The notes: generated by a model from the sequence alone, not told the origin. Shown: positions 327-28,376, numbered from the stretch's first letter. The stretch is 47,581 nucleotides of DNA from Candidatus Micrarchaeota archaeon (GCA_043803815.1 JAZDJR010000017.1:1-47581), one strand, 5' to 3'. Numbers and translations: made by a program.

Positions 327-406
327 GCCAAATAGTATACGATTTCGCTATTTAATAGTTTGGAAATTAAGGAATTAAAAAAAAGAAAAAGAAAAAAAGC
401 GTTTTT

Positions 407-1081
407 TTACTTGGACGCTTCTTTTCGGATTTCGTCGGCCCAATGGATAATGTCTTTTTTGAACGCCAAGGCAAACAAAACGCCTGCAATGACGGCCAGG
501 GCAATGACCAAAACCGTAAAGCCGATTCGGAACGCATCAATTAAGATAGTCGTGTTGATTCCAACCATTTGCAGGGCCAAAACAATGGTCACGTAAATGA
601 TGAGAATTTCGACTATTGCTCCGATCGTCTTTTTGTACTTATAATCGGTCGCATCCACGTGGTTTCTAAGCCAGCGCGCCAAGAGCAGTCCCAGCATCAG
701 TAAAATCAACGCGGCGATTCCGCTGTTGACTAACGTGATGAAGAACTCGGTGAACTGGCGTAAAACATTCAGTTGAATCAAAGCAACGGCTTGCGCCAAA
801 AAAATGGCAATTACATACCATTTCGTGAAGCTTCCAATCAAATGAGATACGTGGTGATTTCCGATTGCGGCTTTGAGTTTTTGCTCTTCAATCCACTGGT
901 CGATTTTCGTTTCTTCCAAGATTCGGGTTACGATGCGCTTGAGCACGATTCCCAAGGCGATACCGACAATGATCAGAAGCAACGCTCCGAACAGCCCCGG
1001 CAATACGCGAAGAAAATCCGCCCAAAGAGTCAATACCGCAACGGTAAGACCGTTTGAAAGTTCCGATAGCAAATCAACCAT
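407..1081 (-). CDS. Multi-pass membrane protein, MscS-associated/CmpX-type TM-helix repeat family
   Basis: LPGLFGALLLIIVGIALG-type helices, KIDQW loop and repeated helix pairs typical of the conserved TM_helix repeat proteins. Confidence 0.7.
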   Translation of the reverse strand: MVDLLSELSNGLTVAVLTLWADFLRVLPGLFGALLLIIVGIALGIVLKRIVTRILEETKIDQWIEEQKLKAAIGNHHVSHLIGSFTKWYVIAIFLAQAVALIQLNVLRQFTEFFITLVNSGIAALILLMLGLLLARWLRNHVDATDYKYKKTIGAIVEILIIYVTIVLALQMVGINTTILIDAFRIGFTVLVIALAVIAGVLFALAFKKDIIHWADEIRKEASK

Positions 1082-1112
1082 ATTTAAATCACTGCATAAA
1101 CAAAAACTTTTG

Positions 1113-1130
1113 AGTATTTAAACCTTTTTA
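1113..1130 (-). promoter_or_regulatory. Putative archaeal BRE/TATA promoter of the 407..1081 gene
   Basis: Minus strand AAAAAGGTTTAAATACTC about 35 nt upstream of the ATG. Confidence 0.45.
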
Positions 1131-1287
1131 AAGGCGGTTCGAATCCGAAAGAAACCAAGTCCAAACAGAGGACTAAATCCAAAAAAAAGGAAAATTCGGG
1201 CGAAACGTTCAAAAAAAAGAAAAAGAAAAGAAATAGGGGAAACGAACCGTTTTCCCTTTCCTATGACTAAATAGTTTTTTCAGGTTC

Positions 1288-1357
1288 CCAATTTTTGCCA
1301 TTGGCAAAAATTGGCCCTTTTTGGCATTGCCAAAATTGGGTTTTTGCCATGCAAAAA
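1288..1357. repeat. Three tandem related palindromes downstream of the thermosome gene
   Basis: CCAATTTTTGCCA-T-TGGCAAAAATTGG (1288-1314), TTTTGGCA-T-TGCCAAAA (1319-1335), TTTTTGC-CAT-GCAAAAA (1341-1357). Confidence 0.8.
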
Positions 1358-1366
1358 AAGCTGAAT

Positions 1367-3013
1367 CTACATGTCCATTCCGCCGCCCATGCCTTCCATT
1401 CCGGGAGGCATTCCGCCGGCACCGTGCGGCTTGGAGGTTCCCGCGATGATGTCGTCGATTCGCAAAATCATTTCCGCGACTTCGCTTGCACTCGTGACCG
1501 CCTGGATTTTGATGGCCAAGGGTTCGATGACTTTTTGGGCTTTCATGTTCGCGATTTTTCCTTCGTAAACATCGACGCCGAAATACTTGCCGTCTTTTTG
1601 CCCGTGCTTTGAGCGAAGCGAAACAATGGTGTCCAAGGGATCCATTCCCGCGCTTTCGGCAAGGGTTCTTGGAATGAATTCCAGTGTTTCCGCGAACGCT
1701 TCAATGGCTAATTGTTCTCTTCCGCCGACGGTGTTGGCGTATTGGCGCAGTTTGTGGCTAACGGCCGCTTCGGCCGCTCCGCCGCCAATCACGAATTTGC
1801 CCGAGCGGATACAAGCCGCCAAGGCTCCAATCGCGTCGTGCAAGGCGCGTTCGGCTTCGTCGACTACGTGTTCGGAACCGCCGCGAACCAGAATGGAAAC
1901 CGCTTTGGGGTTTTTGCAGCCCGAAACGAAAACCATGTTGTCCCCGGCAATTTTTTTTTCTTCGACCAAATCCGCGCGGCCCAAATCGTCCTTGCTCAAG
2001 TCTTCAAGGCGCGAAACGACTTTTCCGCCGGTGGCTTTGGCTAACGCATCCACGTCGCTTTTTTTAACGCGGCGAATCGCGACGATTCCTTCTTTGGCCA
2101 AAAAATGCTGGGCCATGTCGTCGATTCCTTTTTGGCAAATCAAAACGTTAGCGCCGCTGTCCTTGACCGAGGCCACCATTTTGCGGAGCATGTGCTCTTC
2201 CTGGTCCAGAAACGACTGCAATTGGTCGGGAGAGGTAATCTGGATTTTGGCGTCGGTTTCGGTTTCTTTTATTTCAAACGCCGCATCCACCAAGGCGATT
2301 TTGGCTGAGGACACTTTTCTCGGCATTCCCGTATGGACGATTTCCTTATCCACGATAATTCCTTTGACCAGTTCGGAGTTGTTCAGGCCGGCACCGGTTT
2401 TTTTTTCGACTTTAATCGAATCCATATCGATAACGGTCTTGTTTTCCCGTTCGTCGGCAACCATCATTATCGCGTCAACGACCAAGTTGGTCAAAGCTTC
2501 GGCTCCTTCCGCGGCTTTTCCCGTCATTGCGGTCAAGGCCAGGTCGCGAAGCAATGCTTTGTCCTTAATCGAAACGGTTTCGCTGATTTCGTCGTAAAAT
2601 TCCTTGGCTTTTTTGGACGCCATCCGGTAACCCTTGATGATAACCGTCGGATGGATGTCATCGTCCAATAATTTTTCGGCTTTTTCGAGTAAGGTTCCCG
2701 CCAAAACGGTTGCGGTAGTGGTTCCATCGCCGACTTCAGTGTCCTGGGTTTTGGCCACTTCAACCATCATTTTGCCGACGGGATGATTAATCGCCATTTC
2801 CTGCAAAATTGTAGCGCCGTCGTTGCTGATGGTAATGTCGCCGAGTTCGTCGACAATCATCTTGTCCATTCCTTTCGGCCCGAGCGTGGAGCGCACGGCA
2901 TTGGCAACCGCCTTGGCCACCAAAATATTGATTCTTTGGGCATCCTTGCCGCGGGTTCGTTTGGAACCTTCAGGCAAAAACACAACATTTTCGCTTTGTC
3001 CGGAATTGCTCAT
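1367..3013 (-). CDS. ths: Thermosome subunit (group II chaperonin)
   Basis: [33 protein letters not shown] motifs and GGM-rich tail; start reassigned to ATG 3013 behind a GGAGGT RBS (3021-3026). Confidence 0.98.
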
Positions 3014-3070
3014 TAGAATTACCTCCTTGGTAAAAAAATCGCAAAAGTTGAGTAAGTATTGATGGATATG

Positions 3071-3088
3071 AATGTTATAAAAACCTTG
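3071..3088 (-). promoter_or_regulatory. Putative TATA box of the thermosome gene
   Basis: Minus strand AAGGTTTTTATAACAT about 60 nt upstream of the start. Confidence 0.45.
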
Positions 3089-3274
3089 GTCAAACGGGTT
3101 TTTTAGCCAATTAAGGAAAGTTTTAAGGACAAACAAGGTTTTTTCCGGCAGGATTCCGCGACCATAGTTTTTGCCGGAAAAGCGGTAAAAAAAGAGACTG
3201 TTTTTTCAAAGAAACCGCGGCTTAGGTCCGATTTATTAACATTTAAGCCGTGTTCTGTAAAAGGAGCGATTTTT

Positions 3275-3592
3275 ATGAAAAAAGGAAAAACAACGAAAGC
3301 ACGCAAACCGGAAAAAATGGTTTTGGAAGCAAGCGACGAAGATTTCGACCCTGAAGCGGAATGCGATTGCCACTCCGAAGAATGCTGCTGCGAAAGCGAC
3401 GGCAAAATGGAAATGAGCAGGGAAGAAATGGGCCGAATGTTCACGGACGCGGCATCCGACGTCTGGATGAAAATGTTTTTGCAGGCCTGCGAAAAAGAAT
3501 GGCAAAAGCAAGCCGGAAAAAACATCCAAAAAATGGCGGCGGAATACGTCAAAAAATCCAAAGTGCAATGGGAACAAAGCAAAGGAAAGTAG
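3275..3592 (+). CDS. Small hypothetical protein with Cys/His-rich acidic motif (possible metal binding)
   Basis: AAGGAG RBS; CDCHSEECCC motif followed by a helical C-terminus. Confidence 0.75.
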   Translation: MKKGKTTKARKPEKMVLEASDEDFDPEAECDCHSEECCCESDGKMEMSREEMGRMFTDAASDVWMKMFLQACEKEWQKQAGKNIQKMAAEYVKKSKVQWEQSKGK

Positions 3593-3787
3593 CGTTTTCT
3601 TTTCCCTGTTTTTTTATTTCGTTTTTTCCTATTTTTTATCACGTTTTTTATCCTGTTTTTTTACCTTATTTTTTTGCGTTGTTTTTTTGCCTTACTTTTT
3701 CGGCGATTAACCGTTGGCTTCGTTTTTAATCCGTTTTCGGCTTCGAAAGTTTTAAATCCCCGAATCGCGTTAATTTGAACGATTGAA

Positions 3788-4522
3788 ATGATGGGAGAAG
3801 TTGAACGGGTTCCAACCGGCATTCCGGGACTGGACCCGCTGATTCAAAACGGCTTTGCCAAAGGCTCGGCCAATCTTGTGGCTGGAACTCCCGGCACGGG
3901 AAAAACGATTTTTTGCATTCAGGTGCTGTACAACGCGGCTTTGCAGAAAAAAAACTGCCTGTTTGTTTCTTTTGAACAATCCGGCGAAGACATCAAAAAA
4001 CAAATGGCGCAATTCGGCTGGGAATTTGAAAAAGCCACTCCATACTTCAAAATGCTGGCAACCACGTATGACGACCCCGCGTTTTTCCAGCAGTTAATGG
4101 CGGAAGTCAAAAACAAAAAACTGGACATGGTTGCCATCGATTCCTTGGCGTCGATTATTATCGACCCGTACGATGTGTTCGGCTCTCCCGATTTTGGAAT
4201 CATGAAAATGCTCAAGCAAGGCGTGAACCTGCCATTGGATGTTTCCGCATTGTCGCGCATGAAAGTCAAAAAAGTAATCGACACTGTCAAGAGAAGCGGA
4301 GCTACATCGTTACTCACCGGCGAAGTGATTCGCCAGCAAGGCGGGTTTTCGCGCGACACCATTTCCGACTTTTTGGCGGATTCGATTATTTTATTGCAGC
4401 ACAACCCCACGGCCGGCGCAACCAACCGAACGCTTACCCTGGAAAAAATGCGGTTGACCAAAATCGACGACCTGATTCACCCGCTTCAAATCACCAGCCA
4501 AGGCATCAAGCTCGTAGGCTGA
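3788..4522 (+). CDS. KaiC/RAD55-family single-domain ATPase
   Basis: RVPTGIPGLD, Walker A GTPGTGKT, VSFEQ, Walker B VAIDSL, EKMR; TTTTAAAT box upstream. Confidence 0.92.
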   Translation: MMGEVERVPTGIPGLDPLIQNGFAKGSANLVAGTPGTGKTIFCIQVLYNAALQKKNCLFVSFEQSGEDIKKQMAQFGWEFEKATPYFKMLATTYDDPAFFQQLMAEVKNKKLDMVAIDSLASIIIDPYDVFGSPDFGIMKMLKQGVNLPLDVSALSRMKVKKVIDTVKRSGATSLLTGEVIRQQGGFSRDTISDFLADSIILLQHNPTAGATNRTLTLEKMRLTKIDDLIHPLQITSQGIKLVG

Positions 4523-4582
4523 ATTTTAACGCCAAAACGGGTTCATCGGATTTTAATAAGTAAGCGAATATCCTATTTTTGC

Positions 4583-5197
4583 ATGCCGAGCGATTTGGAT
4601 TTATTTTTAGCCGAACGAAACCTGTTCTTAATCAAAAAAATCTCCAAGGGTTTTGCCGGCGACGTTTTTTTGGTGCAAAACAAACGCAAACAAAACTTCG
4701 CGCTTAAAATCGAACGGCCAAAGTCGCGCCGCCGCGACATGGTCTCCAAAGAAGTGCTGAACCTTCAAAAAGCCAATTCCGCAGGAATCGGGCCAAGCTT
4801 AATCGATTTTGATTTGGGGAAAAAAATAATTTTGATGGAATTTATCCAAGGAAAAGTGTTCGGAAAATGGGTTCTTCAAAAAAACATTTCCAAAACCGCA
4901 TTGGAAAAAACAATCGAAAGCCTGCTTTTCCAAGCAAGACAAATGGATGAAATCGGGTTGGACCACGGCCAGCTGGCTGGACCGGGAAAAAACATTTTAG
5001 TCCGCCCCAACCACGCGGTTTGCATCATTGATTTTGAAAAAGCGAGCCAAAACCGCAGGTGCCACAACGTTCACCAATTGCAAAGTTTTTTGTTTTTCAA
5101 TCCGCACTCGGATATTTCAAACCGGGTGCGAAAAGTGCTGAAAATAAAAAGCGGTGAAAAATCGGCATTTCCTGTCCCGCAGATTCGCCAAGATTGA
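4583..5197 (+). CDS. Archaeal Ser/Thr protein kinase (COG2112/RIO-Bud32-like)
   Basis: ISKGFAGDVF glycine loop, ALK lysine, MEFI hinge, DHGQL...NILV catalytic loop, IIDFE. Confidence 0.85.
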   Translation: MPSDLDLFLAERNLFLIKKISKGFAGDVFLVQNKRKQNFALKIERPKSRRRDMVSKEVLNLQKANSAGIGPSLIDFDLGKKIILMEFIQGKVFGKWVLQKNISKTALEKTIESLLFQARQMDEIGLDHGQLAGPGKNILVRPNHAVCIIDFEKASQNRRCHNVHQLQSFLFFNPHSDISNRVRKVLKIKSGEKSAFPVPQIRQD

Positions 5198-5241
5198 ATC
5201 TGAAAAATTAAAAGAAAAGAAACAGGAATAAAACCGAAAAT

Positions 5242-5667
5242 TTATTTTCTGAATTTTCGGTCGACTTCGTTGATTAAAACGTCGCACGCGGCTTTTACGC
5301 TTTCCAATTGCTTAATCAATCGGACGCGTTCGTGTTCGATGTCCTGCACGTTTTCGTAGGGTTCGACCGCTTCGCGGAGCATGCCGCCGTCCACGTACGA
5401 GTACGGGTGCGTGTTCATTTTTTGGGAAATGCGCTCCACCATTTTGCCGAGCCAGACGTTCATTTCGTCTTTGACCTGGCCTTTGATGATTTTTCCGTCA
5501 TCGAGGTGCTTTCGCATCATGTTGACGATTGTGGCGCGCGGAAAAGGAAGCTTGTCTTCGGGCAATTCAACGCCTTCTTCTTCCAGCTGTTCCATTTGTT
5601 TTATCGAATTGTCATCGCTTTCCGCGGTTTGGGTCGTGTTTTTAGGGGTTTGCTTGACTTTATCCAT
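5242..5667 (-). CDS. Histone-fold protein with acidic N-terminal tail and C-terminal coiled coil (coiled-coil histone type)
   Basis: LPFPRATIVNMMRKHLD alpha1 resembles NF-YB/histone folds; long amphipathic C-terminal helix; GGTGA RBS before ATG 5667. Confidence 0.8.
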   Translation of the reverse strand: MDKVKQTPKNTTQTAESDDNSIKQMEQLEEEGVELPEDKLPFPRATIVNMMRKHLDDGKIIKGQVKDEMNVWLGKMVERISQKMNTHPYSYVDGGMLREAVEPYENVQDIEHERVRLIKQLESVKAACDVLINEVDRKFRK

Positions 5668-5768
5668 TCTTTCACCATCCAAAAAAATTAATCAAAGACC
5701 ATATATTTTGACAATATATTAGTGCAAACTAACAATTTTAAAGCCTGCTGTGCTAAAAAAGAGGTGTT

Positions 5769-16287: not shown

Positions 16288-16344
16288 AATTCCGTTTAAG
16301 CGGCTAAAATTTTTTTGAACTGTCTATTTTGAAAAAATAAATTC

Positions 16345-16440
16345 TTATTTTTGGTCTTGCGCTGTCGCGGCTTTGTTTCTTTTTCTTTTTTCCAAAAAAA
16401 CCGCGAACAACACAAGCAGCCAATTGAACGTAAATTTCAT
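16345..16440 (-). CDS. Putative 31-aa peptide MKFTFNWLLVLFAVFLEKRKRNKAATAQDQK
   Basis: GGTGA RBS 4 nt before the ATG; hydrophobic core and basic tail; below the ORF-track cutoff. Confidence 0.4.
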   Translation of the reverse strand: MKFTFNWLLVLFAVFLEKRKRNKAATAQDQK

Positions 16441-16460
16441 TAGGTCACCAAAAAAATAAC

Positions 16461-16510
16461 GGCCTCAGTTCGCCCATCTCTTTGCAAAGATGGTTCAAAA
16501 TAGACACCAA
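16461..16510. repeat. Cassette-boundary repeat, copy 1
   Basis: GGCCTCAGTTCGCCCATCT CTTTGC AAAGATG GTTCAAAATAGACACCAA; internal IR CCATCT-N8-AGATGG. Confidence 0.9.
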
Positions 16511-16524
16511 CCTTTCTTGTTCCT

Positions 16525-17451
16525 TCAAAGTTTCGTCGTCATCACGAGCGCCAGGGTGTAAGTCTTTTTTGAATCTGAAAATAGTTTAACTATTTTTAAT
16601 CCAGTGGATGAGAACAGTTTCGAAAGCGCTTGAGGGGTGGCCTTGTAGGAGAGCATCAGCAGAATCTTTTGTCCTTTTTTCAGGTCTAACGGCGGATGCT
16701 CGAATCTTAGGTTCTTTTTGATAACAAACCGGGTTTCGACCTGGCTCTTTTCTTTATTGAATTTGACTTCGAACGCACCATCTGCCAATTGGATTCCGAT
16801 GGAACGCAGAACATTGGATTGGATAGCAAACAAAGCCGGATTCCGGTATTTTTCCAAGAGATTTTCAGTGTTTGTTGAGACATTTTCGATTCCAATGAGG
16901 GCGTAATCGTTTCGAGTCATGCTTTCCCGGATGTTGGTAAGAACGCGGCTTTTGTTCCAGCAATTGCCGAGGGTATTTCCCAAAAACAGGAAAAGATTGG
17001 GCCGATCCCTGTGTTTATGGGAAATATTCGACAAGTTTCCTTCCTCGAAATCCTGGACCGCCGGATGGATTTGAATATTCTTGATTTTCTTGATTTCAGA
17101 ACAAGCAATATCCAGCATATCTGCACTGATGTCGATTGGAACATACTTTACCGCGCGGTCTTTAGCCATTTCTTTGAGCAGGATAGACGCCTTGGTCCCG
17201 TCTCCGCAACCCAGGTCGAACACATTGCAGGGTCCAGTGGTGCGGGAGATAGAAGCCGCGTTGTCTGTCAACAAAGCTTTTTCGGTCCTGCTCAGACCGT
17301 ATGCCCGGTCGTTGGCGGCTTTTTTCCAGAGCATCGCCCCCTTGTTGAGATATTCAAATTTCAAGGGGATTTCGCTACGACCCTGAATCGCTGTGAGGAA
17401 TTCAGAAATCTGGTCTTGGGAAGAAAAGAAATTATCCTTCATTTTGCTCAC
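16525..17451 (-). CDS. EgtD-like (L-histidine N-alpha-methyltransferase family) SAM-dependent methyltransferase
   Basis: EIPLKFEY, YGLSRTEKALL, DLGCGDGTK, YVPIDIS, FLFLGNTLGN and late SYK motif match the Methyltransf_33 family. Confidence 0.85.
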   Translation of the reverse strand: MSKMKDNFFSSQDQISEFLTAIQGRSEIPLKFEYLNKGAMLWKKAANDRAYGLSRTEKALLTDNAASISRTTGPCNVFDLGCGDGTKASILLKEMAKDRAVKYVPIDISADMLDIACSEIKKIKNIQIHPAVQDFEEGNLSNISHKHRDRPNLFLFLGNTLGNCWNKSRVLTNIRESMTRNDYALIGIENVSTNTENLLEKYRNPALFAIQSNVLRSIGIQLADGAFEVKFNKEKSQVETRFVIKKNLRFEHPPLDLKKGQKILLMLSYKATPQALSKLFSSTGLKIVKLFSDSKKTYTLALVMTTKL

Positions 17452-17499
17452 CGATATTCTTCATTTGTATGTGGAAATGAATTTCAATCCCCTTTTCGG

Positions 17500-18723
17500 T
17501 CATGCGTATTTCATCTTCTGGTTGGTCTGCCTGAGCGAGTGCAACACGAGTTGTTTCATCAGCGTGGTGAAGTTTTTGTCGTTTCGTTCTTTGGATAATT
17601 TGGTCAGGTTCATGTACGGTTCGATAAAACCAGCCGGAAACGTAATCAATGGAAATCCTTTGAGTAATAGCGTATGTACAAACAAAGCCCTAGAGGTTCT
17701 TGAATTCCCGTCGATAAAAGGATGGATTCGTTGGAATTCGTTGTGCAAATATGCAGCCAGCTCAACGGTCTCGTGCGGTTTCATTTTTTTGTAAGCGTTT
17801 TGTTTGTAATATTCGAATAAATCGTCTAGTCGCCTTGGAACTTCTTTCCAGTCCGCAGTCTTGAATTCTGGGTTCCCTTTTATTTTGACGTTTTGCATCC
17901 GGAGTTGTCCTGCTCCGGCTTCAAGTGTTCCCATTGCTTTTTCATGGAACTCGAGTACGGAACGCAAATCAAGCCCTTTCGGTTCTCTAATAAAAATATC
18001 GAGTGCTTTTTTGTAATTGGTGATTTCTTGCATTTCTTGGAACGTTCTGGTTTTGGGCGGGGTGTTTTCTTTGATAAGTCTTTCCGTTTCGGATAAAGTC
18101 GTCGTGTTTCCTTCAAGGGAAAGACTTCGATGGATGAACCGAATTTCATCGTCAATATTGACCGGTTTAGACGTTTTTTTGAAAGTAGAAAATTCTCTTT
18201 CAATTTGGTTATTCAGATTTTCTTCATCCGCTCCCTCGTATACTGGCGCAGACTTCACTTCCGCTTTTTCGCGAAACAGTTCTACAACCGTTTCCAAGTA
18301 GTGCGGACACACCACGCGGGCGGAAAACGGTTTTCGGGAGTCAATTAAAATAAAACCGTGTTTGGCCAAAAAAACCGAAATTCTTGCAACTGTTTTGTAA
18401 TCGAATGGCAGTTCGCTGTCCAATTTATTTTTTAATCCAAACTCGATGAATTCAATCGTCAAATCCAAAAACAATTCGTTGTAATTGATTCCGTCCCGTA
18501 CGCAAAAATCAATGACTCGAAGAAACTTTTTCGCCGCTTCGTTTTTCGCCACAAAATATTGCTTTTGATTCAGGGTAACCAACCCGTCTTCCAGCAACGT
18601 TTGCAAGTGCTTATGAAACGAATCATATTCGGCCGCCGTTTTGCCAAGCTTTCGTACGAGCTGGGCAGTCGTCAGGCCCTCATTAAGAAACACGGAATAC
18701 AAAAGGTCGTATTTGGAAACCAT
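17500..18723 (-). CDS. Fic/DOC-family protein with N-terminal winged HTH
   Basis: Fic motif HPFIDGNSRTSR; inhibitory-type SLSLEGN motif; N-terminal HTH-like segment. Confidence 0.92.
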   Translation of the reverse strand: MVSKYDLLYSVFLNEGLTTAQLVRKLGKTAAEYDSFHKHLQTLLEDGLVTLNQKQYFVAKNEAAKKFLRVIDFCVRDGINYNELFLDLTIEFIEFGLKNKLDSELPFDYKTVARISVFLAKHGFILIDSRKPFSARVVCPHYLETVVELFREKAEVKSAPVYEGADEENLNNQIEREFSTFKKTSKPVNIDDEIRFIHRSLSLEGNTTTLSETERLIKENTPPKTRTFQEMQEITNYKKALDIFIREPKGLDLRSVLEFHEKAMGTLEAGAGQLRMQNVKIKGNPEFKTADWKEVPRRLDDLFEYYKQNAYKKMKPHETVELAAYLHNEFQRIHPFIDGNSRTSRALFVHTLLLKGFPLITFPAGFIEPYMNLTKLSKERNDKNFTTLMKQLVLHSLRQTNQKMKYA

Positions 18724-18756
18724 ATGAATAAAGACCACCCAAAACTATAAAAACAG

Positions 18757-18809
18757 TGCTATTTGGTAGCAAAATTCCGTAAAAAACCGAAAAACAATAC
18801 CAAATAGCA
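18757..18809. promoter_or_regulatory. 12-bp perfect inverted repeat upstream of the Fic gene (candidate operator)
   Basis: TGCTATTTGGTA (18757-18768) ... TACCAAATAGCA (18798-18809), 29-nt spacer. Confidence 0.55.
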
Positions 18810-18819
18810 GTAAAATTCT

Positions 18820-18869
18820 GGCCTCAGTTCGCTCATCTGCGAGAAAAGATGACGCAAAATCTACATTAA
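18820..18869. repeat. Cassette-boundary repeat, copy 2
   Basis: GGCCTCAGTTCGCTCATCT GCGAGA AAAGATG ACGCAAAATCTACATTAA; 37/50 ungapped identity to copy 1; IR TCATCT-N8-AGATGA. Confidence 0.9.
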
Positions 18870-18889
18870 GCGAAATGAAGCGAAACGAC

Positions 18890-19318
18890 TCATCCAACCA
18901 GCGATTTGCTTTTTTCAATGAATTTTTCGGCTTGGTCGAATAATTCTGCCAGGTTTTCTTCGAATTTGACTTTGGAAACCCCGTATTGGATTTCTTGGCG
19001 CAAGCCGCGCAAAATATCAAACAGGGCAATTTGCTCTGCGGAAAATTGGCTTGATTTTCCGTATTCTTCTTCGATGTATTTTTGCAGACAGTAATGGCTA
19101 CGCTCCTTGATTCCATCCTTGAACAGCAAGGCGCGCGCCGCATGAAAAACCGCGTTGTAAAGCGCCAGGCACGCCATTTCTTTCTTTTTCAGTTTAAGCA
19201 GGTCCTCGGCTTCGTTTAAAAAAAACTCCGCCTGCTTCAAATCCTCTTTGGCCAAGGTTATGTTCTTGGGTGTTTTTTTCAGCAATCCTTTTGCAAAACA
19301 ATCATCCAATGGATTCAA
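18890..19318 (-). CDS. HEPN domain protein (MNT-HEPN module)
   Basis: LYNAVFHAARALL, ERSH and R-x4-Y (RQEIQYG) motifs; overlaps the upstream MNT gene; start TTG 19318 or GTG 19327. Confidence 0.9.
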   Translation of the reverse strand: MNPLDDCFAKGLLKKTPKNITLAKEDLKQAEFFLNEAEDLLKLKKKEMACLALYNAVFHAARALLFKDGIKERSHYCLQKYIEEEYGKSSQFSAEQIALFDILRGLRQEIQYGVSKVKFEENLAELFDQAEKFIEKSKSLVG

Positions 19319-19868
19319 GCGGCGCACCCCACATCAAAGTAGACTTGTTTTGAATTTGGTTCAATAATTCGGTTTCCTGCTTTTTCATATTGGCAATTTT
19401 TTCTTTGGTTAATACAATCAAATCAACTTCACGCTGCAACTCATTGCTTAACTGCGACTTAATTTTGCTTAATTCAACCGCGTTGGCTTTTTTTTCAAAA
19501 AAAACCGCCAAATCAATATCACTAGTAGCGGAAATCCCGCCGGTATGAGCACTGCCGAACAAAAAAACCCCTTTGGGTTTTTGCTGAACCAACTTCGCAA
19601 AAGCTTTTGAATGAATGATTTTGTCGGTCATCAGAATTCCAACCGCTTTAGCAGTTAATGGTGAATCCGAATTTAAACTGAAAACTTTCCGGTTCTTGAC
19701 GTTCTTAACAAAAACCATCTGGTTCTTCTGTAAATCGGACAGAACATTGTAGACGGTACTTGGAGCCAACCCAGTTTCTTCGGCGAGTTCCCGAAGATGA
19801 ACCCCGCGATTAATTAGTCTATCTAAAATACGAAAAGTGTTCGGGTCCAAAAACTGAGTTAATCCCAT
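19302..19868 (-). CDS. HTH-fused minimal nucleotidyltransferase (MNT antitoxin-like)
   Basis: HLRELAEETGLAPSTV HTH; GS-x10-DID (GSAHTGGISATSDID); EVDLIVL. Confidence 0.92.
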   Translation of the reverse strand: MGLTQFLDPNTFRILDRLINRGVHLRELAEETGLAPSTVYNVLSDLQKNQMVFVKNVKNRKVFSLNSDSPLTAKAVGILMTDKIIHSKAFAKLVQQKPKGVFLFGSAHTGGISATSDIDLAVFFEKKANAVELSKIKSQLSNELQREVDLIVLTKEKIANMKKQETELLNQIQNKSTLMWGAPLESIG

Positions 19869-19945
19869 AGAATAGCCATAAGTCGTTTGCCATTAAAAAC
19901 ATATCGTTTTTTTAAAAAAACAAAACGTTTCTATAAAAAACAGTT

Positions 19946-19977
19946 GGCCTCAGTTCGCCCATCTTTCGTCAAAGGTG
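19946..19977. repeat. Cassette-boundary repeat, copy 3 (overlaps the 3' end of the small ORF)
   Basis: GGCCTCAGTTCGCCCATCT TTCGTC AAAGGTG; first 19 nt identical to copy 1. Confidence 0.9.
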
Positions 19978-20147
19978 ACCCTCGGAGTCATCGTCAGTTC
20001 ATCATCGGCCAAAATAACTAACCCTGCAAAGTTGTTAAACGTTTCTTCGCGTTTCACCGTTGATTTTGGCTTTGGGAACGAAACCCGCTCGTCGGAGGAT
20101 TTTTCAAAAACGCGGCCAATTTTCTTGTTTTTGTGCGGGACAACCAT
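19950..20147 (-). CDS. Putative 65-aa peptide (MVVPHKNKK...TFDERWAN), divergent from the tailoring cluster
   Basis: AAGGAGG about 11 nt upstream of ATG 20147; no recognisable family. Confidence 0.45.
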   Translation of the reverse strand: MVVPHKNKKIGRVFEKSSDERVSFPKPKSTVKREETFNNFAGLVILADDELTMTPRVTFDERWAN

Positions 20148-20212
20148 TAAATAGCCCGCCTCCTTCTTTAGAGTGAAAAAAGCGGTTGGTGAAGCAGGAG
20201 ACAACGGTTTTC

Positions 20213-25754: not shown

Positions 25755-28334
25755 TCAAAACTGGTATTTTTTGAAAAAATAGCGCTTGGCCAATTCAACG
25801 GTAACAAAGTAAAATACCAGTATTCCAGCAATGAGGGCCAACACCGAAGCGGGCAGGCCGACAAAGCGGAACAACTGCTGGCCAAAAGACGTAAAAATAA
25901 TCAAAACTGCGACCAAGCCAGTTCCAATCGACGTTGCCAACAGCAGCATACTCGGCCTGCTTTTATAAAACGCGAGCTGGGTGCGCAAGGCAAACACTAC
26001 AACAATTTCGGACAAAGCGGATTCGACAAACCACGCGGTGCGGAATACGTCGGTTGCAACCCCCAACACCAAAAGCAAAGTTCCAATCAAAATCAAGTCA
26101 AACACGCTGCTGATAACCCCGAAAAAAACCATGGCTTTGGACAAAGCCGAATTATCGTACTTGCGCGGCTTTTTGAGCAAGGACGCATCCACATTGTCGG
26201 TTGAAACCGCCAGCATGGGAATATCGGAAACAAAATTATTCAATAAAATCTGGGAAGGCAAAAGCGGAATGAATTTCAAAAACAGGGAAGACAAGGCCAC
26301 CGTAAACATATTCCCGTAATTCGCGCTGATCGTATTCAGCAGGTATTTGTTGATATTGGCAAAAGTCTTGCGGCCCTCGATGATTCCGTCCGCAATCACG
26401 CGCAGCGCTTTTTTCAGCAAAATAATATCCGCGGATTCGCGGGCAATTCCCGCGGCGCTATCCACCGAAATCCCGACGTCCGCGGCCTTTAAGGCGGGCG
26501 CGTCATTAATGCCGTCCCCCAAAAACCCGACAATGTGCCCCTGTTTTTTCAGGGCATGCACAATGGACAGCTTATGCTCGGGAGTCACCCGTGCAAACGC
26601 GTTAAATTTCCCCGCGAAGCCGGCCAGTTCTTCTTCGGACAAACCGTCCAGCTCATCGCCGGTCACAATCCGGTCATCCACCAAGGCAAAACCGACTTCT
26701 TGGCAAACCGTCCGAGTAACCAGCGGGCTGTCGCCGCTGATGATTTTAACGTCCACCCCTAATTGCCGCAGATGATGCAAAGCCTCTTTGGCGGTTTTTT
26801 TAGGAGGGTCTAAAAACAGCAAAAAGCCGGTCAGCACCAAATCGGTTTCATCCGCAGGAACCGTCGAGGAAGCGGCTGTTTCTTTTTCGGCTACCGCGAT
26901 TACCCGAAAGCCCTGTTTTTCAAACTCTTCGACTTTTTGATGCATTTTGGAAAGCAATGCGGAAGTTAAAGCGGCGGTTTTTCCGTTCGATTCGATTTTG
27001 GTGCATTGCCGGAAAATAAATTCCGCGGCGCCTTTGACAATCAGGCGGTTTTTCAAATCCTGCTTTACCAAAACGCTCATGCGCTTGCGCGAAAAATCAA
27101 ACTCGTTTTTTTCAAGCACTAAAAATTTGACCAGATGGTGCTCGACGGACTTTGCCAGCGGGCTTTCCCAAATCGCCTTATCCAAAGGATTGGAAAAAGC
27201 CTTGTGGTGCTTTCCGATCTGGACCTCGGAACACATCAGGGCATCCACAATCAAATGCTCGTTTTTGGAGCCGTCCGCGCAGACAAAATCGTGCAATCGG
27301 ATTTCGCCTTCGGTCAAAGTGCCGGTTTTGTCCGAACACAAAATATCCATGTTGCCCAAGTCTTCCATGGACGCGAGTTTTTTGACCACGACTTTTTGCC
27401 TGGCCATGGCAACGGCGCCGTGCGATAGACTAATCGTCATGACAATCGGCAACGCTTCCGGCGTAATCCCGACCGCCAGGGCAATGGCGAACAAAAACGA
27501 GTCAAAAGCCCCTTTTCCCAAAACCGTGTTCGCCAAAAAAACAAACAAAGTCATGCAAATGATGACTTTGACCAAAAGATTGCTGATTTGGCCGATGTTT
27601 TTTTGGAACTGGGACTCATCGGACTCGGATTTCAAAAACGACGCGGTCTTTCCGAAAAAAGTGGCGCTACCTGTTGCGGTGACCACGCCGTGGCCGTAGC
27701 CGCCGGACACGGTTGTGCCCATGAACGCCATGTTTTCCAAATACTGCGGCAAGGAATGTCCAGACGGCAGGACCGAAGTGTGCTTGAGCACGGGAACGGA
27801 TTCTCCCGTCAGCACCGACTCGTCCATGGTCAGCTCTTCGGACTGGATTAAGCGGATATCCGCGGGAACCAAATCGCCGATGTTCAAAAAAACAATGTCG
27901 CCGCCGACGATTTCCTGCGAATCGATTTGCAAAAAATCGCCGCCTCGCAGCACCTTGGACTTGATAACCACAAATTTTTCAAGCTCTTCCAAGGCTTTTT
28001 CGGCCTTGTACTCCTGAAAAAAACCAAGCACCGCGTTTACTACGACAATGACCAGGATAACCGCGGCATCCAGCGTTTCGCCGAAAAAAAACGCGACAAT
28101 CGCGGCCAAAACCAAAATCAAGACCAAAGGATTCGTGAATTGCGAAACCAGAATCGAAAGCGAGTGGCGCTTTTCCTGCTTTGCAATCCGGTTTTTTCCG
28201 GTGTCCATCAATCGTTTTTGGGCTTCAGCCAAAGACAGGCCGTTTTCGGAAGTGCCTAAGCGGGACAATACTTCCGGAATCGGCAAAGCCCAATAAAGCA
28301 CTTTCAATGCAGGATTGCTATTCGCGGCTGCCAT
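25755..28334 (-). CDS. mgtA: Mg2+-translocating P-type ATPase (type IIIB)
   Basis: LTGES, AVGITPEALP, DILCSDKTGTLT, FDFSRKRMSV, GDGINDAPAL, NYGNMF. Confidence 0.88.
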   Translation of the reverse strand: MAAANSNPALKVLYWALPIPEVLSRLGTSENGLSLAEAQKRLMDTGKNRIAKQEKRHSLSILVSQFTNPLVLILVLAAIVAFFFGETLDAAVILVIVVVNAVLGFFQEYKAEKALEELEKFVVIKSKVLRGGDFLQIDSQEIVGGDIVFLNIGDLVPADIRLIQSEELTMDESVLTGESVPVLKHTSVLPSGHSLPQYLENMAFMGTTVSGGYGHGVVTATGSATFFGKTASFLKSESDESQFQKNIGQISNLLVKVIICMTLFVFLANTVLGKGAFDSFLFAIALAVGITPEALPIVMTISLSHGAVAMARQKVVVKKLASMEDLGNMDILCSDKTGTLTEGEIRLHDFVCADGSKNEHLIVDALMCSEVQIGKHHKAFSNPLDKAIWESPLAKSVEHHLVKFLVLEKNEFDFSRKRMSVLVKQDLKNRLIVKGAAEFIFRQCTKIESNGKTAALTSALLSKMHQKVEEFEKQGFRVIAVAEKETAASSTVPADETDLVLTGFLLFLDPPKKTAKEALHHLRQLGVDVKIISGDSPLVTRTVCQEVGFALVDDRIVTGDELDGLSEEELAGFAGKFNAFARVTPEHKLSIVHALKKQGHIVGFLGDGINDAPALKAADVGISVDSAAGIARESADIILLKKALRVIADGIIEGRKTFANINKYLLNTISANYGNMFTVALSSLFLKFIPLLPSQILLNNFVSDIPMLAVSTDNVDASLLKKPRKYDNSALSKAMVFFGVISSVFDLILIGTLLLVLGVATDVFRTAWFVESALSEIVVVFALRTQLAFYKSRPSMLLLATSIGTGLVAVLIIFTSFGQQLFRFVGLPASVLALIAGILVFYFVTVELAKRYFFKKYQF

Positions 28335-28376
28335 TGACAAAAAAACGCCGAATTCCTATATTAATCTGCGGTAAAC

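Follow-up and report, generated by a model that had tools for sequence, protein, structure and literature searches.

A C/D box sRNA gene as the probable insertion site of stacked gene cassettes in a Candidatus Micrarchaeota archaeon and its relatives

The locus and its repeated sites

The locus considered here lies in a 47,581-nt stretch of DNA from a Candidatus Micrarchaeota archaeon (GCA_043803815.1, JAZDJR010000017.1:1-47581), hereafter the window, and consists of a C/D box small RNA (sRNA) gene followed by two small gene cassettes, each ending in a short repeated site. An earlier note, made from the sequence alone, had described here three direct copies of a recombination-site-like element, GGCCTCAGTTCGCYCATCT-N6-AAAGRTG, at positions 16461, 18820, and 19946. 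All three copies are present on the plus strand with 0 mismatches, and the 32-nt pattern is absent from 100 dinucleotide-preserving shuffles of the window. The spacings between the copies (2359 and 1126 bp), the 6-bp centres, each different (CTTTGC, GCGAGA, and TTCGTC), the arms CCATCT/AGATGG versus TCATCT/AGATGA, and the CAAAAT..ACA extension common to copies 1 and 2 are likewise as described. The sites are best read on the minus strand, which is the sense strand of every gene between the copies; in this orientation, each gene group is followed on its 3′ side by the conserved 19-mer, AGATGGGCGAACTGAGGCC. The whole assembly (1,083,160 bases in 36 contigs, 85.6% complete) is without further copies beyond the three of the window, a count that holds at up to three mismatches both to the 19-mer and to the 18-mer core. 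The motif is thus not spread genome-wide over ordinary gene ends, an outcome that had been named as speaking against a cassette system.

The three copies belong to two classes. An RNA gene ends with copy 3 (class A site), and copies 1 and 2 are a longer, separate site (class B) that has in common with the sRNA gene just its last 19–20 bases. They are therefore not equal copies of one inverted-arm site: copy 3, as the end of a C/D box sRNA, differs from the other two, and what had been taken there for the spacer and the right arm is actually the C′ box region of the sRNA. The inverted-arm layout is a correct description of copies 1 and 2 and an incorrect one of copy 3; a structured RNA, which the earlier note had offered as an alternative, is thereby partly right, for copy 3. 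Two further interpretations of the sites were tried and abandoned. A tRNA fragment as the source of the core was rejected since ARAGORN found no tRNA in the window, and a second inverted core (GCGAAC...GTTCGC), as would be expected of a long attC-like site, occurs after copy 1 only and is taken as chance.

Along the sense strand, the sRNA gene is followed by cassette A (18866..19943, minus strand), which has its own AT-rich upstream region and carries an HTH-MNT nucleotidyltransferase gene (19302-19868, minus) and a HEPN gene (18890-19327, minus). By its gene content, this pair is type II toxin-antitoxin-like. Behind copy 2 comes cassette B (16507..18819, minus strand) with a winged-helix + Fic gene (17500-18738, minus) and a gene for an EgtD-like S-adenosylmethionine (SAM) methyltransferase of the Methyltransf_33 family (16525-17451, minus). 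Pfam assigns all four genes and so bears out the gene content proposed earlier (HTH-MNT + HEPN and HTH-Fic + EgtD-like methyltransferase), with every gene on the minus strand. Outside the repeated site, the interval that separates copy 2 from the Fic start codon contains a perfect 11-bp inverted repeat, GCTATTTGGTA...TACCAAATAGC (18758-18768 and 18798-18808, arms 29 bp apart), which is probably the operator of HTH-Fic. The repeated sites themselves were considered as operators and rejected: the Fic upstream region has this palindrome of its own, and no gene lies downstream of copy 1. Palindromes of this sort are also seen behind the sites of other cassettes, as with TTATATTTAAATATAA in the related genome G156 (relatives are designated below by genome, G, contig, C, and locus, L).

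The C/D box sRNA gene

The sRNA gene, which contains copy 3, occupies 19944..20012 on the minus strand and is recognized by its box layout, Rfam matches, stem covariation, and guides. C/D box RNAs are defined by a C box (RUGAUGA) near the 5′ end and a D box (CUGA) near the 3′ end. Here, the first half of the terminal stem, TTGGCC (20012-20007), is followed by the C box AUGAUGA (20005-19999), a D′ guide of 13 nt between C and D′ (19998-19986), a degenerate D′ box CCGA (19985-19982), a 9-nt loop (19981-19973), a degenerate C′ box UUGACGA (19972-19966), the 12-nt D guide AAGAUGGGCGAA (19965-19954), the D box CUGA (19953-19950), and the second half of the stem, GGCCAA (19949-19944). The order of the boxes is canonical, and the C′-to-D spacing is exactly 12 nt. 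In relatives, the D′ and C′ boxes read CUGA or CAGA and RUGAUGA-like, respectively, and 34 copies from relatives have both the C and the D box.

In the Rfam scan, no family reached its gathering threshold in the region, and the sub-threshold matches fell at copy 3 only. The top match in the E-value search of 16300-20200 was RF01139 sR2 at 19948-20009 on the minus strand (26 bits, E 0.0072), which spans the full model (1-57) and is below the gathering score of 42. Five additional snoRNA-type families (sR3, sR1, SNORD109A, snoR77Y, and SCARNA18; four of the C/D box type and one scaRNA) match the same spot more weakly, all of them below gathering. The RNA of copy 3 is of the C/D kind and lies outside every curated Rfam family.

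The terminal stem was examined in 34 class A copies collected from relatives, which have C and C′ boxes, by matching the bases 5′ of the C box (one skipped) with the bases 3′ of the D box. At least three consecutive pairs are found in 31 of the 34, and the mean is 4.88 pairs as against 2.74 with shuffled partners (maximum of 3.76 in 2000 shuffles). The stem exists in 22 distinct variants, and the compensatory ones include GCC/GGC, GGCT/AGCC, GCTCGGT/ACCGAGC, and GTGTGCGGA/TCCGCACAC.

Both guides match the genome's own 16S rRNA: the D guide forms 8 of 8 pairs with positions 1353-1360 of 1486 (9 pairs in relatives having GGA), and the D′ guide 11 of 12 pairs with positions 1006-1017. As judged from this complementarity, the D guide pairs with the decoding-centre segment, and the predicted target is presumably the equivalent of E. 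coli C1402, if the N+5 rule and our alignment of the 1400 region are applied. In the own 16S rRNA gene (G000:C4:56905-58390), positions 1353-1360 read CGCCCAUC, where the usual sequence of the segment has G at this genome's A, and the sRNA guide carries the matching U. The genome encodes fibrillarin (E 1.5e-71), and its rRNA models are archaeal. The genomes of family f15 (L054-L061) keep the D guide (UGAUGGGCGAA) and have a D′ guide unlike that in the rest of the order; thus, the D guide is the conserved half of the sRNA. An 84-codon open reading frame (ORF) at 19950-20204 (minus) overlaps the sRNA; with no Pfam match and a counterpart of just 45 codons in G002, it is probably spurious and liable to be annotated by gene callers.

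The cassette-end sites

Copies 1 and 2 have neither a C nor a C′ box and fit the consensus of the class B sites. Copy 2 (18820..18865, minus) consists, in the sense direction, of the arm TGTAGATTTTGCGTCATCT, 8 variable bases, and the core AGATGAGCGAACTGAGGCC (18838-18820), and copy 1 (16461..16506, minus), at the distal end of the array, of the arm TGTCTATTTTGAACCATCT, 8 variable bases, and the core AGATGGGCGAACTGAGGCC (16479-16461). The arm upstream of the core reads TGT.(A)TTTTG..C/TCATCT in both. From the 91 unique strict sites in the fetched loci, the 40 without a C′-like box define the class B consensus, tgTAAnTAAnncnTCATCTTTCGGnnnAGATGGGCGgACTGAGGC: a site of ~46 bp made of an arm (consensus TGTAAnTAAnnCnTCATCTTTCGG), ~3–8 variable bases, and the core. 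The arm, of ~25 nt, repeats the left half of the core imperfectly and in inverted orientation, and the site has a single stem of 6–9 bp. Its consensus is common to all 40 sites despite unrelated cargo, while the centre is hypervariable from site to site. Cores that read AGTTGG retain the arm sequence CATCT, i.e., arm changes do not track core changes.

Two loci of one family, G139:C24 (L047, 1401-1686) and G123:C5 (L048, 7944-8044), have the sRNA followed by gene-less units of 84 and 184 bp. These units end in the core, and their upstream arm, GTCCGCGTGTGAACGGAGCGAGCCGTTC, is quite different.

Distribution and architecture of the arrays

The 18-mer core with up to one mismatch is found in 54 of the 196 genomes of the order, against one match of a reversed-pattern control, and in a search of the class, in 57 of 215 genomes and none of the 19 that lie outside the order (0 control matches). 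Exact matches to it are absent from viral contigs. The same architecture was found on 8 metagenome contigs. It should be kept in mind that most of the genomes compared are incomplete metagenome-assembled genomes (MAGs).

A strict census comprises 73 site-holding loci, 65 from genomes and the 8 metagenome contigs. In every one of them, all sites are on one strand, and in all 26 multi-site loci the sites are direct repeats. Both classes occur in 21 loci, and in 18 of these all class B sites come behind the sRNA; the window has the order A-B-B, and the layout with the sRNA first and co-oriented cassettes behind it is seen in 20 further loci. Relatives thereby support the proposal that copy 3 is the primary site. 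Another 35 loci contain the sRNA alone, with no cassette site in the stretch fetched; they represent empty sites as compared between species, and sites without cassettes, which the earlier note had looked to, do exist. The remaining 17 loci have class B sites alone, mostly on short contigs. The largest array, in G156, has 11 sites within 9.6 kb.

Several contigs start or end exactly at the sRNA or at a site (G020:C30, C44, and C45, loci L126-L128; G104:C25; G167:C89). This suggests that assemblies are interrupted at the repeat and that MAGs show fewer arrays than exist.

Tandem copies of the sRNA gene are present in G156:C54 (L041, 4740-4930) and in the G114:C42 region (L045, 4080-5150). The upstream copy in each has a private 8–9-bp terminal stem and no cassettes, and the downstream copy, which is the array head, has a degenerate C box, no stem, and a generic GGC tail. 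From these sequences, it looks as if the array-head copy has lost its function and the spare upstream copy does the work.

Cargo and whole-cassette differences

Cassette units in the order are 0.4–2.4 kb long and contain one to three genes, with up to 10 units stacked in G156. The genes between the sites are mainly co-oriented with the sRNA, as are 14 of 16 ORFs in G156. The cargo identified by Pfam consists predominantly of toxin-antitoxin pairs and includes MNT/HEPN, HTH-Fic, a ribbon-helix-helix (RHH) protein with MazF, an MqsA-like pair, HicB/HicA (G001), and HicA (G069), in addition to an RHH/UPF0175 protein, a family 2 glycosyltransferase (GT2), and many proteins without a family. A 152-aa protein of G001, guessed by eye to be an acetyltransferase, was not borne out as such by Pfam. 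Both cassettes of the window have counterparts in relatives. The MNT/HEPN pair is a site-bounded cassette also in G156 (twice), G069, and G071, the window proteins being 29–63% identical to the G069 and G156 versions. HTH-Fic homologues (43–64% identity) form single-gene cassettes in G114, G156, and G165 and stand beside a site in G001.

Differences between related arrays involve whole cassettes, with breakpoints at the sites. The genomes G069 and G071 belong to the same genus, and their flanks are 81–83% (upstream) and 85% (downstream) identical. Homology downstream starts at the last site of each genome, and the breaks fall at sites. A 92% identical MNT/HEPN cassette is the second in G069 and the first in G071, and each genome has one private cassette. 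The three arrays of G110, G112, and G114, likewise genomes of one genus, differ in content: G110 and G112 have the upstream flank in common, G110 and G114 the downstream flank, which in G114 comes directly after the last site, and G112 and G114 a Fic cassette directly behind an sRNA copy. About 675 bp past the last detected site of G110 are not shared.

Cassettes are also shared across families. Between the G156 and G165 loci (20 and 11.9 kb, from different families), alignment is confined to the sites and two cassettes. The GT2 cassette is 92.7% identical over 973 bp, starting from the first base of the core, and the Fic cassette, which aligns between its two sites along 1402 bp, is 86% identical; in G156, a further cassette separates the GT2 and Fic cassettes. 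Moreover, within G156, two cassette types occur twice each, at 92–94% identity. The suggestion that cassettes are stacked with a content varying among relatives is supported by these comparisons (G069/G071 and G156/G165), and a gene order fixed in all relatives, which would have been the opposite outcome, was not observed. None of the refuting outcomes listed in the earlier note came about completely.

Recombinase candidates

As the earlier note had supposed, a recombinase would have to be encoded away from the array: Pfam found none in or next to that of the window. Two tyrosine recombinases are encoded on other contigs of the genome: a Xer-like protein of 299 aa (C7) and an integrase of ~400 aa with a zinc-ribbon tail (C29). 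The family of the C29 integrase is present in 101 of the 196 genomes, including families without the motif; its presence therefore indicates nothing specific.

More informative are two loci in which an integrase gene adjoins the sRNA. One is in G105, where the gene of a 414-aa Phage_integrase protein begins ~50 bp 3′ of the sRNA and shares its strand; the other, in G117, of another family, encodes a 62%-identical orthologue ~50–60 bp 3′ of an sRNA copy. Both proteins have Phage_integrase and SAM-like domains, and both loci are at contig ends. In the wider genome contigs, the search for relatives of the G105 integrase returned its own record plus matches of at most 38% identity only. When the surroundings of 36 integrase loci were searched with ARAGORN, 11 tRNA genes were found, several of these loci being duplicates of one place. 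In five distinct places, a same-strand tRNA gene ends 59–124 bp before the integrase match, as obtained by coordinate subtraction. From these positions, this looks like a family of integrases whose elements integrate at RNA gene 3′ ends, one clade of it at this sRNA. The enzyme acting on the cassettes is most likely a tyrosine integrase supplied in trans, of the family that has members behind the sRNA in G105 and G117 and behind tRNA genes elsewhere.

Proposed mechanism

The locus is probably the product of site-specific insertion of small, integrase-less cassettes into the 3′ end of the sRNA gene. The attachment core would be the last 19–20 bases of the sRNA, i.e., the D guide, the D box CUGA, and the 3′ half of the terminal stem, and each cassette would bring its own site of ~46 bp. 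A cassette circle with arm and core would recombine, in a Campbell-type event, with the core at the sRNA end; insertion would restore the sRNA 3′ end, leaving an intact sRNA at the head and arm plus core at the far end of the cassette. Through repeated insertion at the head, a stack would grow in which every cassette has the orientation of the sRNA. The stack of the window would then represent two insertions, HTH-MNT/HEPN and HTH-Fic + methyltransferase, in array order.

In the host, the core is fixed because it must pair with the 16S decoding centre and keep the D box and the stem, which makes it, like the ends of tRNA genes, a stable place for insertion. The crossover is predicted to lie inside AGATGGGCGRACTGA. 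The degenerate head sRNA copies with the generic GGC tail in G156 and G114, together with the intact, long-stemmed paralogue just upstream of each, fit an exchange within the core, left of the stem bases. A crossover in the variable centre, in the layout of tyrosine-recombinase sites as the earlier note had pictured it, is unlikely, since copy 3 shares no sequence there with copies 1 and 2.

Within the cassette-insertion reading, it is possible, if rather doubtful, that the system is still active, mobilized in trans, and integron-like. About as tentative is the broader idea that it could be an independent archaeal analogue of integrons, in which the gene of an essential rRNA-methylation guide RNA serves as the capture site, and cassettes that each bear a folded ~46-nt site, its conserved stem formed by arm and core and its loop variable, are stacked, reshuffled, and exchanged across families by a tyrosine integrase that came from tRNA-targeting integrases.

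A number of observations weigh against insertion by an integrase at the sRNA end. The sRNA is without a counterpart of the cassette arm, which leaves the crossover point undefined, and its D guide pairs contiguously with 16S rRNA for just 8 (here) or 9 (relatives) pairs. Predicted RNA folding of the class B sites is significantly better than that of shuffles for copy 1 (z −2.65) and not for copy 2 (z −0.13). The polarity of the arrays has three exceptions: in G016, there is a truncated first copy at the contig start, where the D′ guide is still visible, in G156, an sRNA-like copy lies mid-array, and in G165, such a copy is at the far end. In G114 (L045, 6503-11933), a 5.4-kb segment between sites encodes, on the opposite strand, a Na+/H+ exchanger and a P-type ATPase, the latter a homologue of window 25755-28340. 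This segment looks like ordinary chromosome and is either a very large cassette or a sign that the sites also take part in chromosomal rearrangement. The last 45–95 bp of the GT2 cassette, arm included, do not align between G156 and G165. As for the enzyme, Pfam found no recombinase among 30 array or flank proteins, and a tblastn search with two integrases as queries gave no match in 18 further loci, none of the 8 metagenome contigs having a match. The sRNA-adjacent integrase clade was found in G105 and G117 only; the C29 integrase of the window genome is just 37% identical to it, and no close homologues of the C29 integrase were found beside the core.

Alternative explanations

It is unlikely that the arrays are fossil remains of full-size integrase elements, inserted serially into the sRNA gene, which later lost their integrases and most genes, leaving immobile units. 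The integrase-bearing inserts directly behind the sRNA in G105 and G117 would agree with such a history, as would the tRNA genes that adjoin this integrase family elsewhere, which is the classic situation of tandem islands, and the arrays without an integrase. However, modules with the same start and the same end recur at different positions and in different families at 86–93% identity, and random deletion would not yield units of one to three genes always ending in the same arm. The ~25-nt arm is conserved in 40 sites, also where a cargo type has diverged to 29–64% protein identity; its conservation beside unrelated or diverged cargo argues for selection on the site. Finally, the census contains 59 class B sites versus two integrase-bearing inserts. 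Very improbable is an arrangement of the Xer/dif type, in which host XerA would bind the inverted arms of copies 1 and 2 and exchange strands in the variable centre, as in pdif modules or in elements that make use of Xer. This would account for the inverted arms around a short variable centre in class B sites and for cassettes without a recombinase of their own, and the genome does encode the 299-aa Xer-like recombinase. However, the sites on either side of a pdif module alternate in orientation and have 6-bp centres identical in length, whereas all 26 multi-site loci have direct repeats. Classical tyrosine-recombinase exchange needs identical centres, and here the centre differs between every pair of sites within an array; besides, the head site (sRNA) has no left arm, and the identity between the classes lies entirely right of the centre.

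An explanation at the RNA level, which we hold to be just as improbable as the Xer/dif arrangement, would make the site a decoy: cassette transcripts would end in a half-sRNA hairpin that sequesters the D guide and the D box and acts in RNA 3′-end formation, stability, or binding of small ribonucleoprotein (sRNP) proteins, with the arrays arising in some other way. The sites indeed stand always just 3′ of the last gene in sense orientation, the core is RNA-functional in the sRNA, and copy 1 folds better than shuffles. However, copy 2 does not, the class B sites have no C or C′ box and hence no kink-turn partner for the D box, the arm CATCT is kept without compensation where the core reads AGTTGG, and indels of whole cassettes with breakpoints at the sites are left unexplained. 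It is scarcely conceivable that the copies are remnants of protein 3′ ends, an idea that comes from the core reading R-W-A-N-stop in the frame of the 84-codon ORF. The ORF does exist, and the N/D difference between lineages (AAC vs GAC) looks conservative. Yet copies 1 and 2 have a stop either within the motif or 9 codons upstream, none of the synonymous positions varies between families, and the bases after the stop covary with bases ~60 nt upstream, like an RNA stem; the lack of a Pfam match and the short G002 counterpart also speak against a protein.

Relation to known systems

The arrays resemble integrons in several respects. Behind a head site, small cassettes without a recombinase are stacked in one direction and vary between relatives, every cassette is closed by an imperfect inverted repeat that is conserved except for its variable centre, the cargo is rich in toxin-antitoxin genes, and cassettes are common to distant hosts. 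A conserved stem around a hypervariable centre is also reminiscent, by way of analogy, of folded integron attC sites. Integron attC sites have an R″/L″-L′/R′ structure with cores GTTRRRY/RYYYAAC; here, the corresponding bases are GTYCGCC, and a ~46-bp site with a single 6–9-bp stem does not show the attC features. In addition, the head and cassette sites share 18–20 nt rather than 7, the cassettes carry their own regulators and upstream regions, and a C/D box sRNA gene, by its 3′ end, provides the head site in place of a site beside intI. No Phage_integrase match that could be an IntI-type gene was found beside the arrays among the flank and array proteins scanned, no IntI-specific model having been run. 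Integron arrays without a nearby integrase, which the arrays studied here are like in this respect, are known as clusters of attC sites lacking integron integrases (CALINs; PMC9668308).

Integrative elements at tRNA and transfer-messenger RNA (tmRNA) gene ends are similar in that the core is formed by an RNA gene's 3′ end, the gene stays intact, direct repeats bound the inserts, and, in G105 and G117, a tyrosine integrase lies directly behind the RNA gene; such an adjacent integrase is absent from the window and from the multi-cassette arrays examined. Tandem accretion of integrase-less units flanked by attachment (att) sites is known from the cis-mobilizable elements (CIMEs) that lie beside integrative and conjugative elements (ICEs) in streptococci, and the gathering of such units in tandem is a further likeness. 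The present arrays differ from all of these in the C/D box sRNA target, the ~25-nt arm found across unrelated cargo, the unit size of 0.4–2.4 kb with one to three genes, and the stacking of up to 10 units (G156). With the pdif modules of Acinetobacter plasmids, served by XerC/XerD, they have in common small recombinase-less modules with toxin-antitoxin or accessory genes, inverted arms, and a 6-bp centre, and they differ in the direct orientation of the sites, the centres that are all different, the one-armed head site, and the identity lying outside the centre. The sRNA itself is like the archaeal C/D box sRNAs sR1, sR2, and sR3 in its C, D′, C′, and D boxes, 12-nt guide, covarying stem, and guides matching rRNA, and unlike them in remaining below every Rfam gathering threshold and in the degenerate C′ and D′ boxes of this genome.

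The new aspect is the probable use, as an insertion platform, of a C/D box sRNA gene. We could not find an earlier description of an order-wide cassette stack behind an sRNA gene, and a literature search returned no report linking C/D box sRNA genes to integration; archaeal attC arrays tabulated with PMC9668308 could overlap these genomes. The archaea concerned have genomes of ~1 Mb, and gene exchange among them is little understood; an order-wide cassette platform would be a concrete vehicle for it, easily searched with the 18-nt core and the arm. It would add C/D box sRNA genes to the RNA-gene attachment targets (tRNA, tmRNA, and a few others), and it offers a short natural att pair together with a candidate integrase clade. 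If the integron analogy is true, the system would provide these archaea, with their small genomes, with a common pool of genes for toxin-antitoxin pairs and defence. Independently of this, at least 54 genomes can have this sRNA added to their annotation.

Genomic neighbourhood of the sRNA

In G002:C15 (L007), the sRNA adjoins homologues of the window genes at 400-5700, and a block homologous to the same part of the window neighbours arrays in many other genomes (clusters 0 and 2). In the window, the sRNA and its array lie ~14 kb away from the 400-5700 block; thus, the locus has been rearranged here.

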